Source of the DNA: Patescibacteria group bacterium
GTDB lineage: Bacteria; Patescibacteriota; Minisyncoccia; Phycocordibacterales; CAIZLB01
Direction of reading: 5' to 3'
Assembly (NCBI GenBank): GCA_040386515.1
Contig: JAZKFG010000005.1
Span: 9,313-73,312, forward strand
Length of the DNA: 64,000 bases
This document shows positions 447 to 54,761 of the stretch, one piece after another. The translations under genes and the position numbers were made by a program. The notes beneath the pieces were generated by a model that had not been told where the DNA came from, did no database searches, and saw only the letters and a list, made by a program, of their open reading frames with translations. Within the stretch, counting starts at the first letter, position 1; every line of letters starts with the position of its first letter.

Positions 447-1568
447 TCAATCCTGCAATGCACGAAGTGCAAGCCCGATCGCAGGTGCAAATGTTAATCC
501 GGTTGTTTTTAATGCTTCTTGCAAAAAGGCAGGAGTCTCAACTTTAGCAAAAGGCAATGAATATGCAACTTCGCATGCCAAACTTTTTTGCATAAGTTCC
601 AAGAATCCCTTGAGTCCTGAACTACCCCCCGTAAGCAGAACTTTACCGATTGTTTTACTAAACTTTTTTTGAAATGCACTGATTACTGATTGCACTTCAC
701 TCATTACGTATTCTTGATGAATACTGATAAGTTCTAAAATCTTAGCTTCGTCTGCCACGCCACTCTTACCAAGAGATCTCTTTAAATGCTCTGCTTGATC
801 AAATGTAATTCCCAAGCCTTTAGAAATTGAAAACGTAATATCCTGCCCTCCTCGGTTTATTGTGTGAGATGATACAAGCAAACCATTATCAATAATATAA
901 AGCTTCAGACTTGCTGCCCCAAAATCAACAATCATGACAGGACCAGATTCTCCTGAAAGACTCGCTCTGGCTGTTGCAAATGCTTCCACCTCAAAAAAAC
1001 TAGTCTCGAGCTTAGTCTCATTTACAATTGTCGTATAGCTATTAAGAACCTGATTATGAATAGCCACCATAAGTACATGCAGCTTTTTTTGATTTTCCTC
1101 TATTTGTCGAGTAGCATCGTCGTTTGACTCTATAAACTCCAAACTTGTATCTCGTGGCGACGGAATTACAAACCAATCCATTGTGACTTCATTGATTGGC
1201 ACAGGGATATATTTTCGCGCTTCAAGAGGAATCATAGTAGCAAGTTCCGCTTCAGCAACTGGAGGCACATCAATTACACTAACAAGACTAAGTTTAAGTG
1301 GAATAGACATTCCACCTTTAAGGGTTGTAATCTCAGCTTCTTTAATTAAATCCAATATTACAAGGGAAATATCCTTAGGCGACATATTAACAACTTGCCC
1401 AACAGAGAGTTTATTGTACGGTCCAAGACCTAACTCACCGTACGTTTCAAGTACAGCTCGGCCTTTCTTCTTCTTTATTTGCACTATTTTTAGTGACGAA
1501 GAACCTATGTCGATACCTATCACGCTGGTTTCAGGTATGGAAAAAATATTTTTAGTAAAAAAAGACAT
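447..1568 (-). CDS. pilM: Type IV pilus assembly ATPase-like protein PilM (actin/FtsA fold)
   Basis: 373 aa. The N-terminal VIGIDIGSSSLKIVQI motif and overall length are typical of PilM. Followed on the same strand by the PilN-like ORF. Confidence 0.75.
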   Translation of the reverse strand: MSFFTKNIFSIPETSVIGIDIGSSSLKIVQIKKKKGRAVLETYGELGLGPYNKLSVGQVVNMSPKDISLVILDLIKEAEITTLKGGMSIPLKLSLVSVIDVPPVAEAELATMIPLEARKYIPVPINEVTMDWFVIPSPRDTSLEFIESNDDATRQIEENQKKLHVLMVAIHNQVLNSYTTIVNETKLETSFFEVEAFATARASLSGESGPVMIVDFGAASLKLYIIDNGLLVSSHTINRGGQDITFSISKGLGITFDQAEHLKRSLGKSGVADEAKILELISIHQEYVMSEVQSVISAFQKKFSKTIGKVLLTGGSSGLKGFLELMQKSLACEVAYSLPFAKVETPAFLQEALKTTGLTFAPAIGLALRALQD

Positions 1569-3956: not shown

Positions 3957-6179
3957 TTATTCTGGCGTTGTAGCAGAAGGAGTTTCTACGGTTTGAGTTG
4001 GTGTAGGCTCCTGCACTATTGGTTCTGGGACAATAACAGGTTCTACAGATGTTGAAGTACTCACAATCGGTTCAGACTGACTAGGCTGAACAGGTGAAGG
4101 TGTTTGAATATTTACATTAAACCCTCCCCCATTTTGAGCTGCCATTCGTAGAAGGTTTTTGAATTGATCTTTACTAATACACACTTCATCAGAACATACT
4201 TGTCCTTCTACATTTAGCTTTGAATCTTGTTTAACTGTAAATGTAGTATCGTCCGTAAACCATACAGCAATTTTCTCAACTTTTGCTGCCAATTCCTTCA
4301 CCGCATTCACAAGCGCCGCCAATATCGGACGATCAGCAAGAGTAAGAAACCCTCTCGCATCTTCTCCTACAGCTTCAGGAATATTCTCTTGTATGTTTTG
4401 AGCTGAGAACCCAGCATAGTTATTTACCGTGTCATATCCTGTTTCTGGTTTCCATTTATATACAATAGGGTTAATGCCTAGTATTTTATCTAATCCTGTT
4501 TTAAATTCTCCTTGTATATCTTTTAGTCTTTCATCAGATGATACGGTTACGTTACCAAGTGAGTCTACTACTAAGTTTGCTCCTCCACCTACGAGTGAGG
4601 TGAAGCGTATGGTTCCTGAGGCGGTGAGGTTGGCAGAGGGGGTTGAGGTGCCGATGCCGAGTCTACCATCATGAGTAAGTCTCATTTTTTCTGTTCGAGA
4701 TATTGTTCCTGATGCGATTGTTTCAAAAGACAATTCACCTGGAGCTGAAGTTGATGTCCAAGTTTGAGGAGCATATCCAGTAATTGCAGCTGCATTACGC
4801 ATTGATGTGCCATCATTTCCCCCAAATATTAAACCTGCTAATCTATCACCTGTTGCCATCGCTGCACCATCATTTGCATATAACTGTATAAATGAACCAC
4901 TTGAAGGTCCAGTTGCAGCGCTTGATTCACCAACGAATACTGCTCCAGATGATGTATTCCCTACACCAATTCCATTTGATCCCGCACCAGTAAACACACT
5001 AGTCGATGTTGAAATTTGCCCAATTTGTAATTTATATACAGGAGTTGTTGTTCCAATACCTAGATTACCAAGATGATCAAGCCGCATCCTCTCTGCTGGT
5101 GTTGCATTGTTTGCAGTTGAGAAAACTAAAGCACCTTTGTAAGTATTTATATCAGTAATAATTCCAGACATACGAGCAATATCTGTTCGAGTTGTACCTG
5201 TTCTTCGTGCAGTAAACAATATACCCGAACCTGTATTTACAGCCGCAGTTCCTCTGTTATCGAGTCGGAGAAAATCAGGAGCCGATCCACTAACTGAATC
5301 AGTGATATCGAGCTTGTATTCAGGACCTGTGTTGCCGATACCCACCAGTCCGCCGAACGGCGCCATCTGAATAGATCCCTTATTGGATGACAGATCATTT
5401 CCAGGAGCGATTTCGATAACATTATCATCAGCGCCTGCTGAGCGAATTATTGAGGCATTACCTCCATACATTTGCCCTGCACTTTGTTGACCTATAACCA
5501 ACCCTCTCCCTCCTGAATTTGCCCTTTCCAGAAAAATAAATTTATCTTTCGTACCCGTAATATGAATCCCTTGTGTCTTATTTACACCTAAATCAATAGT
5601 AAGTGCAGTGGTTGAACTCGCGGCAGTTGTTGTTCCAATAGCAACATTTCCAGCAGAATAATATGTAGTTGTTCCATTTGCTTGCCATAGAGATACTGAA
5701 GTCCACGTAGTTCCATTTGATGTATATAGAGTGTTGTCAGTAGTATTAAAATATAGTGATCCAGCAGGACCTACTGTTGGCGCAGAACTGTAAGAAAACG
5801 TTCCAAAAGATTTAAGAGCAGTTGGTGCAGCGTTGAGTGAAGTACGTGGAGATAGATCAGTGCCGTTGATATTTACTTGAACATACAGAGCTTGATCGAA
5901 GTTAACTCCTGTAGTATCTGATTCTGTGAATGAAGTACCAAAGTAACCATTAGCAACAGTTACTGTTTTTACAATTGGAGATCCTGTCGTACTTCCTCCT
6001 GAAAGCGAATCATAAAATGTAAATGTTGCGTTAACACTACTACTTAGTGGAGCACCATTACTAAAAAGTTGCCCCTGAAAACCTAAACTCTTTGAGGGTG
6101 ATGCAGCGAAAATACTTGCACTAGAAATAAGCGCAGTGATGAGAAAAGTGGAGATGAGTAATAAAGTTCTTTTCTGCAT
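3957..6179 (-). CDS. Secreted fibre-like protein, paralog 1 of 3. It has a signal peptide, a conserved N-module, a Gly-rich beta-repeat core, a C-terminal Peptidase S74-like intramolecular-chaperone domain and a Pro/Thr-rich tail.
   Basis: 740 aa. N-terminal signal/TM segment followed by the AASPSKSLGFQGQLFSNGAPLSSSVNATFTFYD module shared with 30384-34598 and 52899-54761. The C-terminus carries SSDERLKDIQGEFKTGLDKILGINPIVYKWKPETGYD...RGFLTLADRPILAALVNAVKELAAKVE, consistent with the SDxRxK autocleavage family. Confidence 0.8.
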   Translation of the reverse strand: MQKRTLLLISTFLITALISSASIFAASPSKSLGFQGQLFSNGAPLSSSVNATFTFYDSLSGGSTTGSPIVKTVTVANGYFGTSFTESDTTGVNFDQALYVQVNINGTDLSPRTSLNAAPTALKSFGTFSYSSAPTVGPAGSLYFNTTDNTLYTSNGTTWTSVSLWQANGTTTYYSAGNVAIGTTTAASSTTALTIDLGVNKTQGIHITGTKDKFIFLERANSGGRGLVIGQQSAGQMYGGNASIIRSAGADDNVIEIAPGNDLSSNKGSIQMAPFGGLVGIGNTGPEYKLDITDSVSGSAPDFLRLDNRGTAAVNTGSGILFTARRTGTTRTDIARMSGIITDINTYKGALVFSTANNATPAERMRLDHLGNLGIGTTTPVYKLQIGQISTSTSVFTGAGSNGIGVGNTSSGAVFVGESSAATGPSSGSFIQLYANDGAAMATGDRLAGLIFGGNDGTSMRNAAAITGYAPQTWTSTSAPGELSFETIASGTISRTEKMRLTHDGRLGIGTSTPSANLTASGTIRFTSLVGGGANLVVDSLGNVTVSSDERLKDIQGEFKTGLDKILGINPIVYKWKPETGYDTVNNYAGFSAQNIQENIPEAVGEDARGFLTLADRPILAALVNAVKELAAKVEKIAVWFTDDTTFTVKQDSKLNVEGQVCSDEVCISKDQFKNLLRMAAQNGGGFNVNIQTPSPVQPSQSEPIVSTSTSVEPVIVPEPIVQEPTPTQTVETPSATTPE

Positions 6180-6239: not shown

Positions 6240-7181
6240 CTACAGACTGAACAACGTCTTAGCCGTAAAATACACAACATAAAATCCAACAATCATATAC
6301 GGACCAAAAGGCAGCTCACTCTTAAGTTTCAATGCAGGCAAATATTTTATCAAACGTGCAGTAGTTTTTGATTTAAACAATCGAACATGGAGTGCATTAT
6401 CTTTATTTGAAAAAGCTTCAACAAGCTCTCGAAGAAGCATTATTGCAAGAGCCGCAATACATCCAATCCAGAATGAATAAATAATTGCAGTGAATCCACT
6501 TCCTATTCCAAGTGCCCAGCCAATCACAAGAGCAAGCTTTGCATCACCAAGCCCCATCCATCTTCCTCCCGACACTAGCCATAGTAGTGCAAATGGTAAT
6601 GCGGTTAACAATCCAGAAGAAATACTAAACAAGAAATCTACCGTTCCACTTGTACCAAAGAAAATAAGTGCCAGGAGCATTTTTGCCAAAGCAATGCCTG
6701 ATGCCAAATACACCAATCCATCTGGAATAATCTTATGCTTCATATCGTACACTGCAATAACAATAAAGAGTGCTGCGATTTTAAGATCAAATATTAAAAA
6801 CAAAATCTGAAGCCATGGATGTATTGCCAGCACATCAGTTACCGTTGATGTATCAAACATATGCATTCCGATAAATGAACCTCCGTGTGTTCCAAAGAAA
6901 TACGCATAAAATATACCTGTTAATAAAAATCCAGTGAGTAGTTCTACAGTTGGATATTGTGGAGATACCGCAGAATGGCAGTGTCGGCACTTTCCTTTAT
7001 TTACCACATAACTCAATACAGGAACAAGATCAAGAGGACCAAGTGTTGTGTTGCAAGAAAAACACTTTGATCTACCCTTTGCAATACTGAGGCCGGTATT
7101 ATATCGATAAATTACTACATTTAAAAAACTACCTATTACTATTGAGAAAATAAAGAATGTAAGTATGGCGAAATAAATCAT
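6240..7181 (-). CDS. pilD: Type IV prepilin leader peptidase / N-methyltransferase (A24 family)
   Basis: Polytopic membrane protein with an N-terminal CxxC...CxxC zinc-binding DiS-P-DiS-like segment (CFSCNTTL...CRHCHS) followed by the A24 peptidase region. Confidence 0.8.
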   Translation of the reverse strand: MIYFAILTFFIFSIVIGSFLNVVIYRYNTGLSIAKGRSKCFSCNTTLGPLDLVPVLSYVVNKGKCRHCHSAVSPQYPTVELLTGFLLTGIFYAYFFGTHGGSFIGMHMFDTSTVTDVLAIHPWLQILFLIFDLKIAALFIVIAVYDMKHKIIPDGLVYLASGIALAKMLLALIFFGTSGTVDFLFSISSGLLTALPFALLWLVSGGRWMGLGDAKLALVIGWALGIGSGFTAIIYSFWIGCIAALAIMLLRELVEAFSNKDNALHVRLFKSKTTARLIKYLPALKLKSELPFGPYMIVGFYVVYFTAKTLFSL

Positions 7182-30383: not shown

Positions 30384-33300
30384 TTACTCCCCATCAACAA
30401 CAGGAGCTGGAGTTTCAACCGGTGCAACAGGTTCAGGTGCAGGAGGAGTTACTTCTTCAGTGACTTCAGGTTCAGGAGTTGCACTTGATGAATCTGAAGG
30501 TGGAGGTACAACAGGTACTGTTGGTGCTGATGATGAATGTCCTCCTCCACCATTATTACCCTTTGCATTTAACATCATTTGCTTAAACTCTTGCTTTGTC
30601 ATACACACTTCCTCAACACAGAATTGTCCGTCGAGCTTGATTGAACTATTTTCAGGCACTGCCAGAGTTTTACCATCATCTTTAAACCATGCTGCAATCT
30701 GTTCAACTTTTGTCGCTAATTCTTTTACTGCATTTACAAGTGAAGCAAGAATAGGTCTGTCTGCAAGAGTTAAGAATCCTCGTGAATCAGTCGATACCGC
30801 TTCAGGAATTGCAGACTGAACATTCTGAGCACTAAATCCGGCATAACTATGTTCAGTGTCATATCCAGTTTCTATTTTCCATTTATACAAAATCGGATTA
30901 ATTTGCTTAATCTTATCAAGTCCAGAAATAAACATTCCTTGAATATCTTTTAGTCGTTCGTCAGATGATACGGTTACATTTCCAAGAGAATCAGTGATTA
31001 AGTTGGCACCCCCTGAACCAAGATTAATAAATCGAATTGTTCCAGATGCGGTCAATGTTGCTGATGGAGTACTTGTTCCAATACCCACATTTCCATTTGA
31101 AGTTATTCGCATTCGCTCAACATTATTCGAACCAAAGATAACATCAGTTGCATCAAGTGTTGCCATCATAATATTTCGTGAAGTTCCTGCCGTGTTAAAT
31201 ATTGCATCAACAGTATTTCTTGGAATTGATCCAAGGAAGTTTCCGGTGTAATTCACTCCTGCCTGGCTAAATGCAAAATAGTGATCAGATGTATCTTTGA
31301 TGAGGAATCTAAAGTCAGCTCCATTTCCTGTGCTTGTATTACCCATCTGAACCCCTGATGCACCGTTAAAGTTATCTGAAATATTTGCTGCAAACGTACT
31401 ATTACCTCCTATTGAAAGCGGAACAAAGGCAGCACTATTTGCGTTTACAGATAATTTGGCAAGCGGTGTTGTAGTTCCAATTCCAACATTTCCATTTGCC
31501 TGAACATTAAACAATGACGCATTAGATGCGCTCCAAATATCTATAATTGGGGCAGTTTGTGAAGTTGTTGCTTGTGCTGCAAATGTAGTACTGCCGATAT
31601 TAGTAGAAAATACATGCAACTTTGCTAAAGGTGATGTTGTTCCTATTCCGAAGTTTCCATTTGCATCCAGTGTCATTTTTGGAACAGTTCCTCCACCAGT
31701 TGTATCATTACTATAAAAAGTCAGAGCGTACGCAGATGACATTCTTAAGCCACGTGTGTTTCTCAAATCATAATCCATGTTAATACTTCCGTATTTTGTT
31801 CCTGTGTTTGTATTGCTAAATATCCAATCAAGACCGTAGCCCTGACCGGTCCCTCCTCCTCCAAGTGTAATACGTGTACTTCCTGTTTGATTACCTCCAA
31901 GATGTAATGCACTCATTGCAGAAGTGGTTCCAGTACTTATCCAACCATTTGAGGAATTAACAAACAATGCCGGCGCTGACGATGTTCCAACATTGAAACT
32001 ACCAGCAACATCAAGCTTTGCAGACGGTGACGAAGTTCCTATCCCAACATTTCCAGATGTTCCATCAATAACAAGCAACGGTGCTACTGTGTTTGTTATA
32101 AGAAACTTTCCAGCCCCTCCACTATTTGCAGAGCCGGTTGAAAGTATGTCAAAAGTTTTACCTCCAGTGTCTGTATTGACAAATTTCCAAACTGTACCAC
32201 CTGCTGCAGCAGAAGCCATTGTAAATAATGATCCAGGTGTTGTAGTTCCTATTCCGACATTTCCAGCAGATGTAATTCGAAGCCGTTCAGTTATGTTACC
32301 TGCATTTGGTCGAGTACTAAGAGCGATATATCCTCCATAATTTCCAGAAATTGAATCATCTCGTCCAGATCGAATCGCTGCATTAATTGCAACTGCCCCA
32401 GAGGTATTGTATTTTGCCCCGAATGAAAGCGTACCTCCATAATCTACAGTCGGTGACCCATCATTTGCAATAATGGCAACTTGACCCGAGCTAGTTCCAT
32501 TAACTAAAGTTTTATTCGGCGAAGCAAATACCGCTGTAAATGCTCGGTCAGAAGCACTACTTCCATCAAGTGTACCTGATTGAACACTCAATAAGCTGTT
32601 TGGAGAAGTTGTTCCAATTCCGACATTTCCAGCGTTAGTTATTTGAAATACAGACGTTCCATTTTTTGCAATTGAAACAAAATCAGCATTACCAGTGTTA
32701 TCAATTTTCAATGTTGGTGCAGCTGAGAAACCACTTTGTAGATGCATCAATGCAATACCAGGTTCATTTAATCGAACAAAAGATGTACCTGAAACATATA
32801 CATCTAATGCTGCTGCAGGCGTTGTTGTTCCAATTCCAACACTTCCAGCTAAGTAACCAACATTAGAACCATTAGTAATCCACTGACTACTCACCTTACT
32901 TGCCCACTCAGTTGTTGACGCACTAAGAGGAATTACATATCCTGAAGTGAGTGATAATATTCCAGTAGTAGATGAGTATGATAGTCCTGTTGCATCTGTT
33001 GAAAATGAATTCCGCACACTTGATGTACTAAATATTCCAGTGAGCTGCGAACCATCTCCAATAAATGCTGTGGCGTTCACATTTCCACTAAAGTAACCAT
33101 TACCAATTACTGAAAGTTTTTGCACTGGAGTTGTTGTGCCCATACCAACATTTCCATTATCCAAAATACTAAACAACGCAGTATTTGCAGAGTTGGTTGT
33201 CTGGAAGTTTATTCCCGTTGTTGTTCCAATCCCCTTTATTGCAAGACGTGAACTAGGAGTTGTCGTGCCTCCGATTCCGACATTGCCATTTAACAAAATA

Positions 33301-34598
33301 ATCATTTTTGCACTATCAGACGGACCGATAACGGTCGAGTTTGCAATTGCATTAGTTAATGATGTTCCAAAGGCAGAAGCATTGTTAGCAGTGACTGAAT
33401 TGGAAAATCCAAATGCCATACTATTTGATGAAGATGCGGCTATTACGTTATTGTATCCAAATGCATTACTCAAAGAACCTAAAGCGCTGTTATTATTTCC
33501 AAACGCCGACGTACGAAATCCATTTGCCGTATTGAGTGCACCCACTGCAGATGCATAATCCCCACCTGTTGCGAGGTTATTATTTCCGAAAGCACTTGCA
33601 TATTGTCCGACAAGACCAGCTGAGGTAGAACTACCTGCGACGTTTCCGGCACCGAATGCAGATGTCAAATGGCCGGCTGCCTTATTCTGCAATCCCATAG
33701 CACTATTTCCATACATCCAAGACAGAGAACCTGTTGCCACATTTGCCATACCTACTGAGATAGAATAATTACCTGCAATATTCCCATTTCCAATAGCGCC
33801 ACCTCCACCAGGAAATAGAGGGTCTACCATGTTATCAAGTCCGAATGTATATGAGTTTGAGGCTGCGGCAACCTGAGTTGGCAATGAGTGCGAAGACTGG
33901 ACATCTATTGACCCTGCACCTCGAGCATTACCACTTATGTCTCCCATTACGACAGCATTGTTTGAATTTATAACCTTAATATCACCCTGAACAGTTAGCG
34001 CTGAACCTGGCGTCGTTGTTCCAATTCCAACATTCCCTGTATTAAAATACGTATCACTGTCATTCATCAACCATGGTGATGTAGAAGCTGAACTAGCCGT
34101 AACATTCCAAGATGTTCCATCAGATACAAACAATGTATTTGAGACATTGTTAAAATACAAAGATCCAGCTGGACCTACTGTTGGCGCTGATGCATATGAA
34201 AATGCTCCAAAAGATTTTAATGCGGTTGGCGCAGCATTAAGTGCAGTTCGTGGAGATAAGTCAGTACCATTAATATTTACCTGAACATATAATGCTTGAT
34301 CAAAGTTAACACCAGTTGTGTCCGCTTCAGTAAAAGATGTTCCAAAATATCCGTTAGCAACAGTTATTGTTTTTGCAATTGGAGAACCTGTTACTACTCC
34401 TCCTGAGAGTGAATCGTAAAATGTAAATGTTGCGTTTACTGATGATGATACTGGCGCATTGTTACTGAAAAGTTGCCCTTGGAAACCGAGTGCTTTTGAT
34501 GGACTTGCAGCATATATATTTACAGCGAAAAAAAGCGTAGAAATTGCAGAAATGAGAATGGTAAATAAAGTTCTTCTCTTCATGATGCATACACGCAA
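30384..34598 (-). CDS. Giant secreted fibre-like protein (1404 aa), paralog 2 of 3. It has the same N- and C-terminal modules as paralogs 1 and 3, around an expanded Gly-rich repeat core.
   Basis: Signal peptide; the shared N-module AASPSKALGFQGQLFSNNAPVSSSVNATFTFYD...; at least 9 copies of the (N/A/S)GNVGIGTTTPxxxLxV repeat; and the C-terminal SSDERLKDIQGMFISGLDKIKQINPILYKWKIETGYD...RGFLTLADRPILASLVNAVKELATKVE with a Pro-rich tail. Confidence 0.85.
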   Translation of the reverse strand: MRVCIMKRRTLFTILISAISTLFFAVNIYAASPSKALGFQGQLFSNNAPVSSSVNATFTFYDSLSGGVVTGSPIAKTITVANGYFGTSFTEADTTGVNFDQALYVQVNINGTDLSPRTALNAAPTALKSFGAFSYASAPTVGPAGSLYFNNVSNTLFVSDGTSWNVTASSASTSPWLMNDSDTYFNTGNVGIGTTTPGSALTVQGDIKVINSNNAVVMGDISGNARGAGSIDVQSSHSLPTQVAAASNSYTFGLDNMVDPLFPGGGGAIGNGNIAGNYSISVGMANVATGSLSWMYGNSAMGLQNKAAGHLTSAFGAGNVAGSSTSAGLVGQYASAFGNNNLATGGDYASAVGALNTANGFRTSAFGNNNSALGSLSNAFGYNNVIAASSSNSMAFGFSNSVTANNASAFGTSLTNAIANSTVIGPSDSAKMIILLNGNVGIGGTTTPSSRLAIKGIGTTTGINFQTTNSANTALFSILDNGNVGMGTTTPVQKLSVIGNGYFSGNVNATAFIGDGSQLTGIFSTSSVRNSFSTDATGLSYSSTTGILSLTSGYVIPLSASTTEWASKVSSQWITNGSNVGYLAGSVGIGTTTPAAALDVYVSGTSFVRLNEPGIALMHLQSGFSAAPTLKIDNTGNADFVSIAKNGTSVFQITNAGNVGIGTTSPNSLLSVQSGTLDGSSASDRAFTAVFASPNKTLVNGTSSGQVAIIANDGSPTVDYGGTLSFGAKYNTSGAVAINAAIRSGRDDSISGNYGGYIALSTRPNAGNITERLRITSAGNVGIGTTTPGSLFTMASAAAGGTVWKFVNTDTGGKTFDILSTGSANSGGAGKFLITNTVAPLLVIDGTSGNVGIGTSSPSAKLDVAGSFNVGTSSAPALFVNSSNGWISTGTTSAMSALHLGGNQTGSTRITLGGGGTGQGYGLDWIFSNTNTGTKYGSINMDYDLRNTRGLRMSSAYALTFYSNDTTGGGTVPKMTLDANGNFGIGTTSPLAKLHVFSTNIGSTTFAAQATTSQTAPIIDIWSASNASLFNVQANGNVGIGTTTPLAKLSVNANSAAFVPLSIGGNSTFAANISDNFNGASGVQMGNTSTGNGADFRFLIKDTSDHYFAFSQAGVNYTGNFLGSIPRNTVDAIFNTAGTSRNIMMATLDATDVIFGSNNVERMRITSNGNVGIGTSTPSATLTASGTIRFINLGSGGANLITDSLGNVTVSSDERLKDIQGMFISGLDKIKQINPILYKWKIETGYDTEHSYAGFSAQNVQSAIPEAVSTDSRGFLTLADRPILASLVNAVKELATKVEQIAAWFKDDGKTLAVPENSSIKLDGQFCVEEVCMTKQEFKQMMLNAKGNNGGGGHSSSAPTVPVVPPPSDSSSATPEPEVTEEVTPPAPEPVAPVETPAPVVDGE

Positions 34599-34695: not shown

Positions 34696-35322
34696 CTAAT
34701 AATTTGACTGAAAAGTGGCCGGATATGTCACACTAACTTCCCCATTTGCAGATGTTGCAACTGCTCTAAAATAATATGTTCGATTTGACTCAAGCGGAAG
34801 CGAAACAACATTGTTTGCTGTAAGCAAACTTGTGCCCGTCATCACCCCTGTACCGCTCAAAGTAACGGTCATTGGAGTCACAAATACATTTTCTGTTCCC
34901 GTGATTGGAGAAGTACTGTAGAATACGCTTACTCGACTAGGAATATTTGTATTTACATTAAATGTAGCTGTATTTCCATTCAATGTTACTCCAACAGGAG
35001 TTGTAAACATTGGCGCTGAACCTAATGTAGTCCCGCCCATTTGTGAATTTATAACCGACATGGTCTGAGGACCAACTCTTCCTACTTGGCTAATGCCATT
35101 TTTAGCCTGAAATCTAGTTACCGCCGCTTTTGTAAGTGATCCAAAGTACCCTGTTACAAGTCCTGATGGATACACGCTGCTATCCGTTGCGAGAAATCTC
35201 TGCAAATCAGAGACATCTGTTCCTTGCGAACCTAACTCTAATTGTCTTGTCAGAGCTGCAAAAGTTAATGCAGGTGCCAAGGCAAACGCTAAACAAATTA
35301 ATACTATGTTGAATTTTTTCAT
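34696..35322 (-). CDS. Secreted protein with a peptidoglycan-binding (PG_binding_1-like) domain
   Basis: Signal peptide plus the GTDVSDLQRFLATDSSVYPSGLVTGYFGSLTKAAVTRFQAKNGI motif typical of PGRP-type PG-binding repeats. The C-terminal half is Thr/Val-rich and beta-rich. Confidence 0.5.
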   Translation of the reverse strand: MKKFNIVLICLAFALAPALTFAALTRQLELGSQGTDVSDLQRFLATDSSVYPSGLVTGYFGSLTKAAVTRFQAKNGISQVGRVGPQTMSVINSQMGGTTLGSAPMFTTPVGVTLNGNTATFNVNTNIPSRVSVFYSTSPITGTENVFVTPMTVTLSGTGVMTGTSLLTANNVVSLPLESNRTYYFRAVATSANGEVSVTYPATFQSNY

Positions 35323-35511: not shown

Positions 35512-36540
35512 CTATGAAATCGTAATGTGTTTAATCTTCCGTATTACCTTATGATATATATCTTTTACAGCCATCAATTCGTGTTCATGTGTAAGCTTTT
35601 TGGGGAGCGCTGGTATTTTGCTTCGAAGCTTGGCACTTGTCGGACTTTCATGCTGAATAACATACATGAGTGCTTCAGTTAAAAACTTGGCCGACTGCAT
35701 AGGAACAAGCGGTGCCGCAACAAAGGGCTCAAATTCATATGCATCTCCTACTCGCGTCGCAATACACGGAACATGCATATACATTGCGGTCAATAACGTA
35801 TATAAATCACCTGAACTCGTTCGAGGGGAAATAAATATATCGAAGGCAGGAATATATTGTTCAGGATTTTCCACCTGATCAACAATAAAACAAATCCCCT
35901 GAACATGTGAATTTTCAATTTGCTTTTGCAAAGCAGAATCAACATGACCATCATGCAAAATAACAAAAATAGTATTAGTTAAGTTTTTATATTTATCGGC
36001 GAGATAGGCAGCATCAATCAAATGCTCGACCCCATTCCCTTCATCCTGTCGTATAACAGTTCCAACTATTCGAATATTTTTTGTAAATGCAATGCCAAGC
36101 TTTTTATATATAAAACTTCGGGCTGTGTCTTTTTTTAATATCTCAGTTGTAGGAATCAAATCAATGCCGCGATAAATAAGCGAACGCTTTGATTTTCCAG
36201 CAAGGTGATATTGATCAATATGATCCATATCGTATTTTGAAGTACAAATTGTATGACCATACAAATGTCGTGCACACAGTTGTTTTAAAATATACCAATA
36301 GGTAAACATTATCGGCGCATATAATGTGCGGACAACTTTGATTCTATGCAAAAAAGCAATTAGTGCATATATGCCAAAAGTTTCCTTACCTGTTGCGCGC
36401 ATATGAATAACATCAGGAGTTGTTTCTTTGAGCACATTCCAAAAACGCTTATAGTCAGAAAACCCTTTCTCTACAAGGTAAATATCCTGCTCTGGTATGT
36501 GAGGAGGAGTATATGAATGTATAAAGTGTAATACTCTCAC
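35512..36540 (-). CDS. GT4-family (GT-B fold) glycosyltransferase
   Basis: 342 aa. N-terminal MRVLHFIHSY and a C-terminal donor-binding half typical of group 1 glycosyltransferases. Confidence 0.55.
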   Translation of the reverse strand: MRVLHFIHSYTPPHIPEQDIYLVEKGFSDYKRFWNVLKETTPDVIHMRATGKETFGIYALIAFLHRIKVVRTLYAPIMFTYWYILKQLCARHLYGHTICTSKYDMDHIDQYHLAGKSKRSLIYRGIDLIPTTEILKKDTARSFIYKKLGIAFTKNIRIVGTVIRQDEGNGVEHLIDAAYLADKYKNLTNTIFVILHDGHVDSALQKQIENSHVQGICFIVDQVENPEQYIPAFDIFISPRTSSGDLYTLLTAMYMHVPCIATRVGDAYEFEPFVAAPLVPMQSAKFLTEALMYVIQHESPTSAKLRSKIPALPKKLTHEHELMAVKDIYHKVIRKIKHITIS

Positions 36541-36578: not shown

Positions 36579-39449
36579 TTACTTAATCATGCTTAATGGA
36601 GACTTCACTTCTTCTTTTTTCTCTTCCTTTTTATATTTTTCCATAATACCTTCTTCAACCATATCTCGATCTTGACCGTATGTTAGATATGAAAGCTCTT
36701 TAAGATTTTCTACAATATTTGGATTGCCTTTTTCTTGCGGCATCATTTGTATGTTAAATGGCTTTGTCGGCTTTCCATATGAGAGCATTTTCACATAGGC
36801 ATTAAAGTTATCAATATTCATAATATCGTTCGCCATAAAAGTGGGCTCAAATTGCTTTTCAAGATATTCTGCATCCTCAGCACCAACTCGATAGACCACC
36901 ATATTTCCAACGTTACCAAACACAGATGCCTTGATTTTATCATCAAGCTGAGCAATGAACTGATGAGCCATTGTAAGCGACAATTTATACTTTCGTGCCT
37001 CTGACAAAATAGTTGAAATAGACGGTGTGGTTACGTTTTGGAACTCGTCGATATACAAATAAAACGGCGGCATATCTTTTCCGAATGAATCCACACGCGA
37101 AAGTGCGGCCATCAAAATCTTTCCTACAATAATCAAACCGATAAGGTTAGAGTTAATTTCACCCAACTTTCCTTTTGCCAAGTTCACCAGCAAAATCTTT
37201 TTCTTATCCATGATTTCTCGAAAATTAAAACTAGAATGTTCCTGAGCGATAATCGGTCGCATAATATCATTGGCCAAAAATACATCAAACTTTGATGTGA
37301 TATATGGCACCATGTTTGCAAGGCCAGATTCCCCGCTTGTCTTTTCTGCAATTTCAACCCAAAATTGCCGCACGATCGGATTTTTACATCGTGAGATTTT
37401 CATGTCTCGGAAGCTTTTAACGGCCATTACTCGAGAAACATCAAGGAGTGTACACCCGCTCGATGGATCTTCGATTACAAGCATTGTGGCATTTCTAAAA
37501 TACTGCTCAAACATCGGCCCCATACTTTCAGGCACGCCACCGTATAACTTTTGGAAAATACTAAAAAGCTCGTTTACCACGAATGTTTTTTGCTCAGGAT
37601 GCGATGGATCATATTCGAGCATGTTCAATGCCATTGGACGTTCTGTATAACTTGGATCAAAATAAATAACATCATCAAATCTATCCTTTGGGATTTTTGA
37701 AAGAATATCCTGAATGTCAGATCCGTGCGGGTCGATAAAACACACTCCTTCTCCATTTTTAATATCTTGAAGAATGAGATTTTTAAGAATACTTGATTTA
37801 CCCACACCAGTTTGTCCGATCACATACATGTGTCGAAGTCTGTCTTCTGGCGCCATGTAAACTGGCTGTTCAACATTTCTATGAAGATTCTTACCGAGAA
37901 GCACACCTGTGCGAGGAAGGTCGAGTGGGGCCGGAGCAGTTCCAGCTTTTGACTGCTTGAGCTGCGGCGCATTTGTAGCTCCAGAAAGCATTGGAAAATG
38001 CATCACACTCGAAAGCTCTTTTATAGAAAGCGGAATAATTTCTTTTTGATTAAAAATACGAAATGAAAAATCATGCAAAAAACTTTGTAGTCTAGCTTTC
38101 TCTGGTCGCTCCCACGAAAATCCATTTCCAAGCGCATTATTAAACTGATTAAAACTTGATTCAAGATCAGAAAGTATTTGCTCGGCACGAATCGTATTCG
38201 CAGCTGATGCAACAAGACGAATATTTGTTTCAACAATTGGCGTAGTTATTTTCTTGGTGATTTGCTCAAGGGCTATCTGGTCAACAACTTTTTCTTTATC
38301 TTTTTTATTTTTATCATCTCCATTGACTGCGTGCTCAACCAATTCTTTCCCAAGCTCTCCTGCAGCTTTAGTAAAATGTCCCCACATGGTGTGGCGAATA
38401 TCGATAGACTTTTTCAACGAATCACCCTTACGCACTTTATCAAGAGACTCTTTAAAAAGCTTTGTATAATAATCTCCGACCTGACTAAATACAACCTGCA
38501 CAGATGCCCCTTCTCCCTCTCTTTGAATCTTAGAGAGCGTATTGAGTGTTACCTGCAAAGGATCATGATCAAATTCATCATACATTTTTATAGGAAAAAT
38601 TTCATTCTTAGTTGAAGTTGCATATGAGCCAACGCTTGATCCATCAGAGTTAAAGATATTATAATCGTCATGTTTTATTTCTATTTTTGCACCTGGAAAT
38701 ACAGACAAAATATGCTTTTCAAAAAGATCCGCTTTTGCATCTGGAATAGAAACATAGAAAATAAATTCTTCACTTGCATCAGCCACTGCAAGCTCAATAG
38801 TCATATGATTTTTACTATCTCCCTGCTTTTTACCAGCATCAGAAATAGACATCATACCTGCATAAAATTGTTCCATTGCAGAAAGAAGTTCTTTCAATGG
38901 CCGTTGTCCTGCATCTTTTTTATCAGCTTTAAAATCAGGCAAAGACACTTCATACAATGTATGCGTGATTGATTTTTGTATTGGCTCGCCTTCTTTTAAA
39001 TCCTTAATTGTTAAACCCGCTTTCAAATATTCAACAAGAAATCTATGGAAATCATCTTCGAGATGAGGGTTTTTGGTTTGATGAATGGCAGACAAAGCAT
39101 TATGAATACCGTATTTTTCCATTAAGGTAAAATACTCTTCCATGTTTTTATCATGTGCTTCAGGCGAAAGCTTAAGAACTATTTCTGTACCTCGAGTCTC
39201 ATGCTCTTGAGGTGTAGCCTTATACGATTCATGCAAAAGATCACGGCCAGTATTGGCATGATATTCTTTTATTTCCTCGCGGATAATCTGATCCTGTTCT
39301 TTTTGTCCGCCAATAGTTGCTTCATGTGCTTTTACTTGCGCACGTAAATAATCCAACTCTTCTTCTAAGGTTGTAAAAGGTTTTTTTTCAGGCTCTGCAG
39401 AGAGATTAGGTTGGCCTGCAATATTTTCTATGTGTTCTCTATCGATCAT
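36579..39449 (-). CDS. P-loop ATPase of the FtsK/HerA/VirB4/TraG superfamily (AAA_10/DUF87-like) with a ~500-aa uncharacterised N-terminal domain
   Basis: Walker A GQTGVGKSS is followed by CFIDPHGSDI, which matches the DPxGE motif of DUF87/VirB4/VirD4 ATPases. Walker B is YLYIDEFQ, and a downstream RKYKLSLTMAHQ matches the RK...Q motif of conjugative ATPases. No TM helices. Confidence 0.55.
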   Translation of the reverse strand: MIDREHIENIAGQPNLSAEPEKKPFTTLEEELDYLRAQVKAHEATIGGQKEQDQIIREEIKEYHANTGRDLLHESYKATPQEHETRGTEIVLKLSPEAHDKNMEEYFTLMEKYGIHNALSAIHQTKNPHLEDDFHRFLVEYLKAGLTIKDLKEGEPIQKSITHTLYEVSLPDFKADKKDAGQRPLKELLSAMEQFYAGMMSISDAGKKQGDSKNHMTIELAVADASEEFIFYVSIPDAKADLFEKHILSVFPGAKIEIKHDDYNIFNSDGSSVGSYATSTKNEIFPIKMYDEFDHDPLQVTLNTLSKIQREGEGASVQVVFSQVGDYYTKLFKESLDKVRKGDSLKKSIDIRHTMWGHFTKAAGELGKELVEHAVNGDDKNKKDKEKVVDQIALEQITKKITTPIVETNIRLVASAANTIRAEQILSDLESSFNQFNNALGNGFSWERPEKARLQSFLHDFSFRIFNQKEIIPLSIKELSSVMHFPMLSGATNAPQLKQSKAGTAPAPLDLPRTGVLLGKNLHRNVEQPVYMAPEDRLRHMYVIGQTGVGKSSILKNLILQDIKNGEGVCFIDPHGSDIQDILSKIPKDRFDDVIYFDPSYTERPMALNMLEYDPSHPEQKTFVVNELFSIFQKLYGGVPESMGPMFEQYFRNATMLVIEDPSSGCTLLDVSRVMAVKSFRDMKISRCKNPIVRQFWVEIAEKTSGESGLANMVPYITSKFDVFLANDIMRPIIAQEHSSFNFREIMDKKKILLVNLAKGKLGEINSNLIGLIIVGKILMAALSRVDSFGKDMPPFYLYIDEFQNVTTPSISTILSEARKYKLSLTMAHQFIAQLDDKIKASVFGNVGNMVVYRVGAEDAEYLEKQFEPTFMANDIMNIDNFNAYVKMLSYGKPTKPFNIQMMPQEKGNPNIVENLKELSYLTYGQDRDMVEEGIMEKYKKEEKKEEVKSPLSMIK

Positions 39450-52898: not shown

Positions 52899-54761
52899 TT
52901 ATTCTGTTGTTGTGTCTGTTACTGGTGCCGGAATTGGATCTGGCACAGGTTGTACAGCTGGTTCAACCTCAGGTGCTGGCGCTGGTGTAACTGGTACTTC
53001 AACTATTTGTTCAGGAGTACTGCTTGAAGTCGGTGCTGGTGGAGGTACAGAAGGAAGCGGCTGCTGAATAATATTAATGTTTTGACTTGTCATCAGTGTT
53101 TCAATTTGATCCCCTGTTATACAAACTTCTTGACCATTAGTTTTTTGAACACATAGATTTTTAGTTTTAACAATATCGGTCTCTACAAGTTTTGTTTTAA
53201 CCGCTTCAGCAAATCCCTCCACCTTAGCAGCAAGCTCCTTCACCGCATTCACAAGCGCCGCAAGGATAGGACGGTCAGCTAATGTAAGAAAACCTCGTCC
53301 ATCTGTTCCTACAGCTTCTGGAATATTTTCTTGAACATTTTGTGCACTAAATCCTGCATATGCATTTGTTGTATCGTACCCAGTCTCTGGTTTCCATTTA
53401 TACATGATTGGGTTAAGACCTAGGATTTTCTCTAATCCTGTTTTAAATTCTCCTTGTATATCCTTTAGTCTTTCGTCAGATGATACGGTTACGTTACCAA
53501 GTGCATCAGTTGAGAGTGATCCTGCACCAAGTGATGCAAAACGTACTGTTCCTGTTGTTGTAAATTGAGCTGTTGGGGTTGAGGTTCCGATGCCGACAAA
53601 TCCGTTTGCCATAATTCTCATTCTTTCAGAAGTGGTTGTTCCGACAGTCGTACCAAATATTAAATCGGTATCAAGCACAGTCGGAGTGTGGACCTGTGCG
53701 GACATAGCACGAATGAATGCAGTTGTTGTTCCTGGATCTGTGAGCTGCGAGTCGTTACTTGAAAAATTAATCATTCCAATTGGTTCATTTGCAGATATAG
53801 CGTAACGAAATGATCTAAGGTTGAGACTTCCACTAGATGAGGCGGCACCAGTTAGGACATATGTGCCCGATCCAGCTACAACCAAACGAGCATCCACAAC
53901 TGAAGAACCTATGCCAACATCTCCAGGAGTAGTAATAATCATTTTATCACTACTTGCAGTTGTGTTTGTTGCAGCACGGTTTGCATTTCCAAAACGCAAC
54001 ACACCAGCTGACATACGCATATAGCCAAATGGACGACCTACTGGATCGGCAGAATCAGCAACATTAGTATCCTCTATTCGAAGGAATCCACCATTAGCAC
54101 CAGAAATTCTAAGTGATGCGGTTCCAGCAGGATTCACCACATGAAAAAGTTCACTTGGAGTACTCGTTCCAACCCCAACCTTTCCAGCAATATAAGTAAT
54201 ATCAGTACCACTTGTTACCCATGGAGTTGATACAGTCCACGTTGTTCCGTTTGATATATACAGAGTGTTATCAGTTGTATTGAAATACAGAGATCCAGCT
54301 GGACCAACTGTTGGTGCACTTGCATATGAGAATGCTCCAAAAGACTTAAGAGCAGTAGGGACTGCATTCAAAGCAGTTCGAGGACTTAGATCTGTACCGT
54401 TGATATTTACCTGAACATACAATGCTTGATTGAAGTTTACTCCTGTTGTATCTGCTTCTGTAAATGATGTTCCAAAGTAACCATTTGCAACAGTTACTGT
54501 TTTTACAATCGGAGAACCTGTTACAGCTCCACCTGAGAGTGCATCATAAAATGTAAATGTTGCATTTACTGATGATGAAAGTGGAGCTCCACTACTATAT
54601 AGCTGTCCTTGAAAGCCAAGAGACTTTGAAGGAGAGGCAGCGAAGATAGTTGTTGCTGAAAATATACCAACAACAAGCATGGCAGACAAAAGATATTTTT
54701 TTGTAGTTAAAGTTCGTTTCATGTATATAGTTATTGTATATGTTTTTTCACTAATTAACAA
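52899..54761 (-). CDS. Secreted fibre-like protein, paralog 3 of 3 (conserved N-module, Gly-rich core, S74-like C-terminal domain, Pro-rich tail)
   Basis: 620 aa. Signal peptide; N-module AASPSKSLGFQGQLYSSGAPLSSSVNATFTFYD...; C-terminus SSDERLKDIQGEFKTGLEKILGLNPIMYKWKPETGYD...RGFLTLADRPILAALVNAVKELAAKVE; Pro/Ala/Val-rich tail. Confidence 0.8.
   Translation of the reverse strand: MLISEKTYTITIYMKRTLTTKKYLLSAMLVVGIFSATTIFAASPSKSLGFQGQLYSSGAPLSSSVNATFTFYDALSGGAVTGSPIVKTVTVANGYFGTSFTEADTTGVNFNQALYVQVNINGTDLSPRTALNAVPTALKSFGAFSYASAPTVGPAGSLYFNTTDNTLYISNGTTWTVSTPWVTSGTDITYIAGKVGVGTSTPSELFHVVNPAGTASLRISGANGGFLRIEDTNVADSADPVGRPFGYMRMSAGVLRFGNANRAATNTTASSDKMIITTPGDVGIGSSVVDARLVVAGSGTYVLTGAASSSGSLNLRSFRYAISANEPIGMINFSSNDSQLTDPGTTTAFIRAMSAQVHTPTVLDTDLIFGTTVGTTTSERMRIMANGFVGIGTSTPTAQFTTTGTVRFASLGAGSLSTDALGNVTVSSDERLKDIQGEFKTGLEKILGLNPIMYKWKPETGYDTTNAYAGFSAQNVQENIPEAVGTDGRGFLTLADRPILAALVNAVKELAAKVEGFAEAVKTKLVETDIVKTKNLCVQKTNGQEVCITGDQIETLMTSQNINIIQQPLPSVPPPAPTSSSTPEQIVEVPVTPAPAPEVEPAVQPVPDPIPAPVTDTTTE

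Follow-up and report, generated by a model that had tools for sequence, protein, structure and literature searches.

Fibres of the MAT (mosaic adhesive trimer) type from the Gram-negative predator Bdellovibrio bacteriovorus are trimeric; their beta-helix domains are intertwined, and structurally identical capping loops close the edges of these domains (Caulton et al., 2024, Nat Microbiol, PMC10769870). The capping loop has the consensus V-G-G/N-pi-x-x-P-x-x-x-L and is also found in myelin regulatory factor (MyRF); the examples in Supplementary Fig. 18 of that study include LVGIGTATPAAPLH, AVGIGTTNPSGILH and, for MyRF, RVGINTDRPDEALV (PMC10769870). For the S74 subgroup we draw on Bd3182 (8ojn/8onb/8onc), and also on Bd2133 (8ond), Bd1334 (8oml, 8on4) and Bd2439 (8ol4/8onf). 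The beta-helices of Bd2133 and Bd1334 come in a full form of 131–143 aa, a shorter one of 94 aa and a partial one of 46 aa, and the ligand cleft of Bd3182 lies on a beta-helix face between two capping loops (PMC10769870). In phage fibres and tailspikes that end in an S74 domain, such as the L-shaped tail fibre pb1 of T5 (4UW8) and K1F endosialidase (3GW6), the C-terminal chaperone trimerizes the fibre and then releases itself by cleavage at a Ser-Lys dyad. Patescibacteria are not among the other MAT-bearing lineages listed (PMC10769870). Here, we analyzed a fibre gene of this phylum, referred to as gene B, which occupies positions 30384..34598 of a 64,000-nucleotide stretch (the window) of contig JAZKFG010000005.1, from a Patescibacteria group bacterium (GCA_040386515.1). 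Every window feature whose start and end are given below lies on the minus strand.

Layout of gene B and its capping-loop motifs

We consider it likely that gene B encodes a secreted, homotrimeric surface fibre from the S74 branch of the MAT/phage-tail-fibre superfamily, carried on the chromosome of a Patescibacteria (Candidate Phyla Radiation) bacterium. The evidence centres on a motif. The regular expression G[NS][VF]G[IM]G found 10 copies in the gene B protein (aa 188, 438, 482, 585, 657, 779, 849, 981, 1036 and 1169), against a chance expectation of 0.005 on average and 1 at most in 20,000 shuffles of the protein, so the initial annotation of a recurring motif in the 1404-aa open reading frame (ORF) was well founded. 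The full pattern of the copies is G-[NS]-[VF]-G-[IM]-G-(G)-T-x-x-P-x3-L and their consensus GNVGIGTTTPxAxLxV, often preceded by a beta-strand-like x-phi-x-phi-x stretch (ERLRITS, ERMRITS, SLFNVQA). Successive copies are 250, 44, 103, 72, 122, 70, 132, 55 and 133 aa apart.

The conserved N-terminal block of the protein stops at motif 1, GNVGIGTTTPGSALTV (33990..34037; aa 188–203). Motif 2 (33240..33287; from aa 438) carries a one-residue insertion, GNVGIGGTTTP, and homology with one database relative (P0003) stops at motif 3, GNVGMGTTTPVQKLSV (33108..33155; from aa 482), at query residue 488. Motif 4 (32799..32846; from aa 585) falls inside the stretch that aligned to Bd2133 (8ond), and it is followed by motif 5 (32583..32630; from aa 657), motif 6 (32217..32264; from aa 779), which has ERLRITS in front, and motif 7 (32007..32054; from aa 849). 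Homology with another relative (P0005) begins at query residue 971, near motif 8 (31611..31658; from aa 981), and homology with paralog A, described below, at query residue 1024, near motif 9 (31446..31493; from aa 1036). The conserved C-terminal block starts at motif 10 (31047..31094; from aa 1169), which aligned to Bd3182 (8ojn); in five relatives this block begins at query residues 1140–1168. Motif 10 begins exactly 43 aa ahead of the S74 serine, Ser1212, and in all seven paralogs the last motif lies 41–43 aa before that serine.

When the whole gene B protein was searched against the PDB by phmmer, the matches included Bd2133 (8ond), a 'cell wall surface anchor family protein' (8ojn/8onb/8onc) and MyRF (7dc3), and the single-sequence matches to 8ond, 8ojn and 7dc3 land exactly on motif copies. 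The alignment of aa 181–212 to 7dc3 is weak (E = 0.17). The ICA domain and stalk of MyRF (7DC3) have the same capping loop just upstream of an S74-type domain; unlike the product of gene B, this eukaryotic protein is a transcription factor bound to the membrane, has only one stalk module and forms no fibre. A profile (A1) made from 39 long (~135-aa) inter-motif units of diverged homologs matched Bd2133 (8ond) at E = 5.8e-30 over its entire length (profile positions 1–134 on chain residues 18–149), and further matched Bd1334 (8oml, E = 1.8e-19; 8on4, E = 5e-8), Bd2439 (8ol4/8onf, E = 1.3e-11) and Bd3182 (8ojn, E = 1.6e-7). Judged from these alignments, the GNVGIGTTTPxxxLxV motif of gene B is the published capping loop, and the 'spacers' between its copies are beta-helix modules of differing length. 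The motif thus returns once per module boundary, with no fixed period, because a capping loop closes each beta-helix edge. The initial annotation had described iterated beta-repeat units set apart by Ser/Thr/Asn/Ala-rich spacers. A beta-rich fibre with a genuine motif is retained from that description; the motif, however, is not the repeat unit but a ~14-residue boundary loop between modules of 44–133 aa, and the spacers match solved beta-helix domains rather than low-complexity linkers. A full-text literature search for 'GNVGIGT' returned no paper.

To look for internal homology, the protein was split at the motifs and each piece was searched against 120 homologs (phmmer). Three predicted long beta-helix modules, namely m5 between motifs 5 and 6 (32214..32654; aa 649–795; included in profile A1), m7 between motifs 7 and 8 (31608..32078; aa 841–997) and m9 between motifs 9 and 10 (31044..31517; aa 1028–1185), are mutually homologous over their full lengths, albeit weakly (E = 2e-4 to 3e-5; m5 versus m9, E = 3e-5). 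Two short pieces, aa 430–500 and aa 973–1052, also resemble each other (E = 4e-9), and the remaining pieces have only the motif in common. This homology came from phmmer; blastp of the protein against itself gave no off-diagonal high-scoring segment pair (HSP). No model in the Pfam-A or NCBIfam copies used matches the beta-helix module in gene B, and no NCBIfam family matches the gene at all. PF26696, which like PF25371 is recorded for some homologs, may be a model of this module; DUF7884 was below its cutoff.

At the N-terminus, the mechanical ORF begins with a TTG at 34598 (34584..34598, MRVCI...), five codons before the ATG at 34583 chosen by NCBI for its 1399-aa product (MES2623306.1, 'tail fiber domain-containing protein'). 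The true start is probably ATG 34583, since it yields a canonical signal-peptide n-region (MKRR) and agrees with the paralogs. The signal-peptide-like segment read from the translation, MKRRTLFTILISAISTLFFAVNIYA (34509..34583; aa 6–30), has a basic n-region, a hydrophobic core and I-Y-A|A in that order, a pattern kept in paralogs and relatives. It is followed by a conserved N-terminal domain (34038..34511; aa 30–187), whose first ~95 residues form a predicted beta-sandwich and which shares 68–74% amino acid and 75–78% nucleotide identity with both paralogs in the window. Between motif 1 and motif 2 lies a segment of YadA-head-like (Hep_Hag-type) short repeats (33309..33833; ~aa 256–430; for example SAFGNNNxAxGxxSxAFG). 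PF05658 is present in homologs of gene B; gene B itself has no Pfam match in this segment.

At the C-terminus, Pfam identified a Peptidase_S74 chaperone/autoprotease core (PF13884; 30795..30965; aa 1212–1268) at E = 2e-11 and 44.4 bits (cutoff 22), and a scan at E ≤ 1 returned nothing else for gene B. The core opens with SDERLK, an S-D-x-x-x-K dyad made of Ser1212 (30963–30965) and Lys1217 (30948–30950). The rest of the predicted propeptide (30384..30794; aa 1269–1404) has a C-x4-C cysteine pair and a Pro/Glu/Val-rich tail from ~aa 1343, and is 46–63% conserved in paralogs and relatives. All three paralogs in the window have such a cysteine pair past the S74 core (C-x4-C; C-x9-C in paralog C) and end with a Pro/Glu/Val/Thr-rich tail of ~60 aa. 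By analogy with the self-cleaving fibres, this region would leave together with the chaperone.

The layout of gene B resembles that of the Bdellovibrio MAT proteins: a signal peptide (signal-peptide-like here) and a conserved beta-rich N-terminal domain (~130 aa in the MAT proteins, and possibly related to that of gene B), then a long shaft of beta-helix modules bounded by V-G-(I)-G/N-pi-x-x-P-x3-L, presumably trimeric in gene B, and lastly a C-terminal S74 domain with SDxxxK. In Bdellovibrio, and apparently here, there is a repertoire of several paralogs with constant ends and mosaic centres, and the producer lives, presumably here too, by attaching to other cells. Gene B differs in its origin, Patescibacteria instead of a Gram-negative predator, in also holding the YadA-head-like cassette, and in the location of its variability: here the tip ahead of S74 is conserved and the mid-shaft variable, whereas variable C-terminal tips are emphasized in Bdellovibrio.

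We also noted a 103-aa unit (aa 474–576; approximately 33108..33416), whose first part reads '...FIGDGSQLTGI' and whose second part, TGLSYSSTTGILSLTSGYVIPLSASTTEWA, matches phrog_28668 (function unassigned; E = 9e-10); the long relative L001 described below has many copies of this second part. The fibres thus have another repeat type besides the first, one that has no name as yet.

Repeats in the DNA, fibre length and relatives

At the DNA level, gene B contains a 31-nt repeat family of 10 copies in direct orientation with 74–90% identity (31065, 31464, 31629, 32025, 32235, 32601, 32817, 33126, 33258 and 34008). All nine DNA positions given in the initial annotation fall within this family; the tenth copy (31065–31095) was absent from its DNA list and present among its peptides, and the 24-mer it had reported has 8 matches in the window when up to 3 mismatches are allowed, versus 0 in 100 shuffles. 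Outside the 31-nt core, DNA identity drops to 60–70%. Tandem Repeats Finder returned zero repeats for gene B, lowest score threshold included, and exact repeats within the gene reach 18 nt at most. Comparison of the motif copies gives 87% identity at codon positions 1 and 2 and 47% at position 3, and the codons used are those that this AT-rich genome prefers (GGA, AAT, GTT, ATT, ACA, CCA). Since third positions diverge and positions 1 and 2 are conserved, the DNA repeat is best understood as a by-product of peptide conservation and codon bias, and a third-position identity of 47% indicates no homogenization, gene conversion or recent duplication in gene B. With no tandem array, no exact repeat above 18 nt and diverged flanks, the gene offers slipped-strand mispairing no substrate and homologous recombination a poor one.

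At E ≤ 1e-3, profile A1 found 230,190 proteins, each representing a 50%-identity cluster; at E ≤ 1e-30 the number was 18,622. Individual members have as many as 70 matching stretches and reach ~7,900 aa, and there are proteins with 50–70 modules in more than 7,000 aa. Among the 120 listed homologs, single proteins hold up to 22 motifs; their modal spacing is 70–90 aa, and spacings of about 43 aa form a class of their own. By the standard of this superfamily, the 'giant' gene B is therefore modest. Its protein occurs as a single sequence among 15 billion proteins. Scans of genome contigs and of metagenome contigs with the N-terminal domain gave two distant loci each, two of them incomplete, and no close ortholog. 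One of these loci (L001:9980-20597; JAZKJG010000001.1), from a Patescibacteria metagenome-assembled genome (MAG), encodes a fibre of >3,539 aa with the same N-terminal domain as gene B. In it, 300-nt repeats are 89–96% identical and a 51-nt (17-aa) unit is repeated in tandem at least 38 times, hence recent duplication does occur in the family; none is visible in gene B. L001 would be a much better candidate than gene B for recombinational length variation.

Paralogs and genomic surroundings

The window contains two shorter paralogs of gene B, in line with the initial annotation. Paralog A (3957..6179; 740 aa, MES2623277.1) has the same N-terminal domain and S74 C-terminus with a different, shorter centre. 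Paralog C (52899..54761) has the same ends and the shortest centre; its ORF is 620 aa long, NCBI gives 607 aa (MES2623333.1) from the ATG at 54722, and its start is most likely 54722 rather than 54761. Both share with gene B the N-terminal ~200 aa (68% amino acid identity, 75–78% nucleotide identity) and the C-terminal ~260–375 aa (46–51% amino acid identity) but not the centre, and the best database relatives likewise have the ends in common with gene B and not the centre. The two ORFs hold 2–4 recognizable copies of the motif, as had been proposed when one or two were counted in the other paralogs. A six-frame scan of the window confined the motif to the three fibre ORFs; the window is therefore free of silent cassettes.

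The accessions of four relatives (MES2622897, 2623182, 2623249 and 2623250) interleave with those of the fibre genes in the window (2623277, 2623306 and 2623333), and the contigs that bear these fibre genes are 292, 119, 43 and 236 kb long. Judged by this numbering, there are apparently seven paralogs in one MAG of ~0.7 Mb, which spends ~19 kb on the family. The seven have 2–10 capping loops in 607–1399 aa, and the SDxxxK motif is present in 7/7. Motif number thus scales with paralog length, which upholds the proposed connection between units and fibre length, though not its proposed route: the number of modules sets fibre length over evolutionary time, not through slippage. The internal ends of conserved blocks, at query residues 203, 488, 971, 1024 and ~1160, all lie in motif neighbourhoods (naive p ~6e-4, with the caveat that BLAST HSP ends are approximate), which is consistent with an exchange of whole modules at domain boundaries.

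Upon inspection of the region ahead of the S74 cut, which in the window gene runs from the last capping loop at aa 1169 to the serine at aa 1212 (31094 down to 30963), we noted that the ~50 residues before the cut are conserved among the paralogs, such that the tip left after cleavage would be constant and the mid-shaft variable. Since this tip is conserved among the paralogs, any specificity must reside in the shaft.

Gene B is bordered on one side by a NUDIX hydrolase (Pfam), with infB- and rbfA-like ORFs adjoining as read from their translations. Directly upstream, on the same strand, are genes for a secreted PG_binding_1 protein (34696..35322), a GT4 glycosyltransferase (35512..36540) and a 956-aa TraG/VirD4/HerA-like ATPase (36579..39449); the ATPase may belong to the type IV secretion system reported for Patescibacteria in PMC12102498. 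The same side also has map, adk, secY and ribosomal protein genes. A prepilin peptidase gene (A24_N_bact and Peptidase_A24; 6240..7181) lies directly beside paralog A, and a PilM gene (447..1568) ~2.4 kb from it; the fibre genes are thus linked to genes of the type IV pilus, the known host-attachment system of Saccharibacteria. By eye from translations, a DEAD-box-helicase-like ORF is on the other side of paralog A, an EF-Tu-like (tuf) ORF beside paralog C, and ClpB- and ThrRS-like ORFs between paralogs A and B. The window ORFs scanned (20 neighbour ORFs by Pfam, further ones by eye) gave cellular functions, with no gene for phage structure, lysis or integration among them.

Competing explanations, proposed working and role

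The name 'tail fiber domain-containing protein' implies a genuine phage or prophage gene. Phage tailspikes and fibres typically carry an S74 domain and have a triple beta-helix stalk upstream of it, as is predicted for gene B, and 4–5 stretches of gene B match PHROG families (phrog_9942, E = 7e-29; phrog_18345, E = 1e-23; phrog_33119, E = 1e-6). Nevertheless, the gene lies outside a phage genome, amid infB, rbfA, the NUDIX, PG-binding and glycosyltransferase genes, SecY and a ribosomal protein operon. Its N-terminus carries an export-type signal in place of a virion-attachment region, its three window paralogs are spread over 50 kb near tuf, a DEAD-box helicase and the prepilin peptidase, and four more are on other contigs of apparently the same MAG. 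With an export signal and no phage genes seen, a literal phage tail fibre is disfavoured, and we regard it as improbable, if the least so of the alternatives considered here. A trimeric autotransporter adhesin of the YadA/Hia type is the least credible. It is suggested by the alignment of aa ~298–507 to Fusobacterium heads (CbpF 9u93/9u94, with E = 3e-7 for 9u93, and 9gh4, E = 2e-3; phmmer against the PDB), which share left-handed beta-roll-type repeats, xxSxAFGxxNxAxG, with aa ~300–430. However, the similarity is limited to one ~180-aa cassette out of 1404 aa, and the protein ends in S74 with no YadA anchor or other C-terminal beta-barrel found. Moreover, Patescibacteria have a monoderm-type envelope and are not known to have an outer membrane in which such an anchor could sit.

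The other two alternatives concern the repeats themselves. The initial annotation saw periodic repeats that could expand or contract by slipped or unequal recombination, and gene B would then be a contingency-type gene in which ~30-nt repeats allow rapid changes of fibre length. The ten direct copies of the 31-nt core, the differences in motif number and length among paralogs, and the recent duplications in L001 are what such a model would lead one to expect. Yet neither periodicity nor slippage withstood the analysis. The DNA copies are 132–882 nt apart at unrelated lengths, and the peptide motifs 44–250 aa; Tandem Repeats Finder was empty, the exact repeats are short, the flanks and third positions have diverged as described above, and modules are alike only at E ~1e-4. 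Nor is there evidence of length variants of a sequence that occurs once among 15 billion proteins. The contingency model is thus largely refuted for gene B, and we assign it a very low probability. Lower still is our estimate for a mostly disordered surface protein of low complexity, rich in Ser/Thr/Asn/Gly, whose motif would be no structural element but a short linear motif, such as a site of glycosylation or cell-wall binding. A core (aa 205–1160) that is 59% G+S+A+T+N and the low confidence of an AlphaFold2 monomer model would fit a disordered protein, but the full-length profile match to crystallized beta-helix domains (E = 6e-30) would not, and the inter-motif sequence is conserved enough to have yielded a profile from 39 diverged homologs. 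An obligately intertwined trimer is, furthermore, expected to give low monomer confidence.

Several observations nonetheless weigh against a MAT-like, S74-type surface fibre. The AlphaFold2 monomer of one module (A1) was poor (pLDDT = 61.5), and Foldseek of that model against the PDB ranked 8ond and 8oml at the top but non-significantly (E = 0.07–0.4), hence we did not use it as evidence. The N-terminal domain, possibly homologous to that of the Bdellovibrio proteins, was modelled as a generic beta-sandwich only; a profile search with its alignment (A3) returned one 110-aa fragment and missed known paralogs, and is not counted here either way. Lastly, the conserved region before S74 would be the distal tip after processing, and a conserved tip is less usual for adhesins.

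For the secreted S74-type fibre that we favour, we infer by analogy a trimeric state, autoproteolysis, surface retention through the N-terminal domain and an adhesive role, and its assembly might proceed as follows. The protein would be exported by Sec, and the C-terminal S74 domain would nucleate trimerization and set the register of the three chains. The shaft would fold next, comprising three long modules of ~130 aa, several of 44–103 aa and the YadA-head-like beta-roll, after which Ser1212/Lys1217 would cut off the chaperone. The N-terminal beta-sandwich would then retain the mature fibre of ~1,180 residues on the cell, and the variable shaft modules could offer lateral binding clefts or surfaces. 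The mature chain might span very roughly 50–80 nm, as extrapolated at 0.4–0.7 Å per residue from Bd2133 (150 Å for 370 aa) and full-length Bd3182 (550 Å; PMC10769870). Length diversity in the family, here represented by ~seven paralogs, would build up slowly as entire modules are gained, lost or exchanged where the motifs mark their boundaries.

Gene B probably serves to recognize and adhere to a host cell or a glycan on its surface. Attachment to a host surface ranks first among possible functions because cultivated Patescibacteria are known as episymbionts; in the papers that our literature search returned, the type IV pilus is the system for which host binding by Patescibacteria has been shown. 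None of the papers found connected Patescibacteria with S74 or MAT fibres. We suggest, tentatively and with considerable doubt, that the MAT-like repertoire (~seven genes, ~19 kb of a ~0.7-Mb genome) serves for host recognition, as an episymbiont's equivalent of the fibres with which Bdellovibrio recognizes prey, and that its capping-loop motifs double as preferred cassette-exchange junctions that retarget the fibres. Neither the host-recognition nor the cassette-junction idea was found in the literature searched for this phylum.

As a sequence feature, the repeat is already explained by published structures, and the superfamily has more than 200,000 representative members. Gene B is an ordinary member of a known fibre family, from a phylum where that family had not been discussed. 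A design of constant ends and a variable centre is the one that Bdellovibrio uses to recognize many prey surfaces. Should the proteins studied here act as host adhesins, the determinants of host range in this uncultured lineage would most directly be sought among their variable beta-helix modules.

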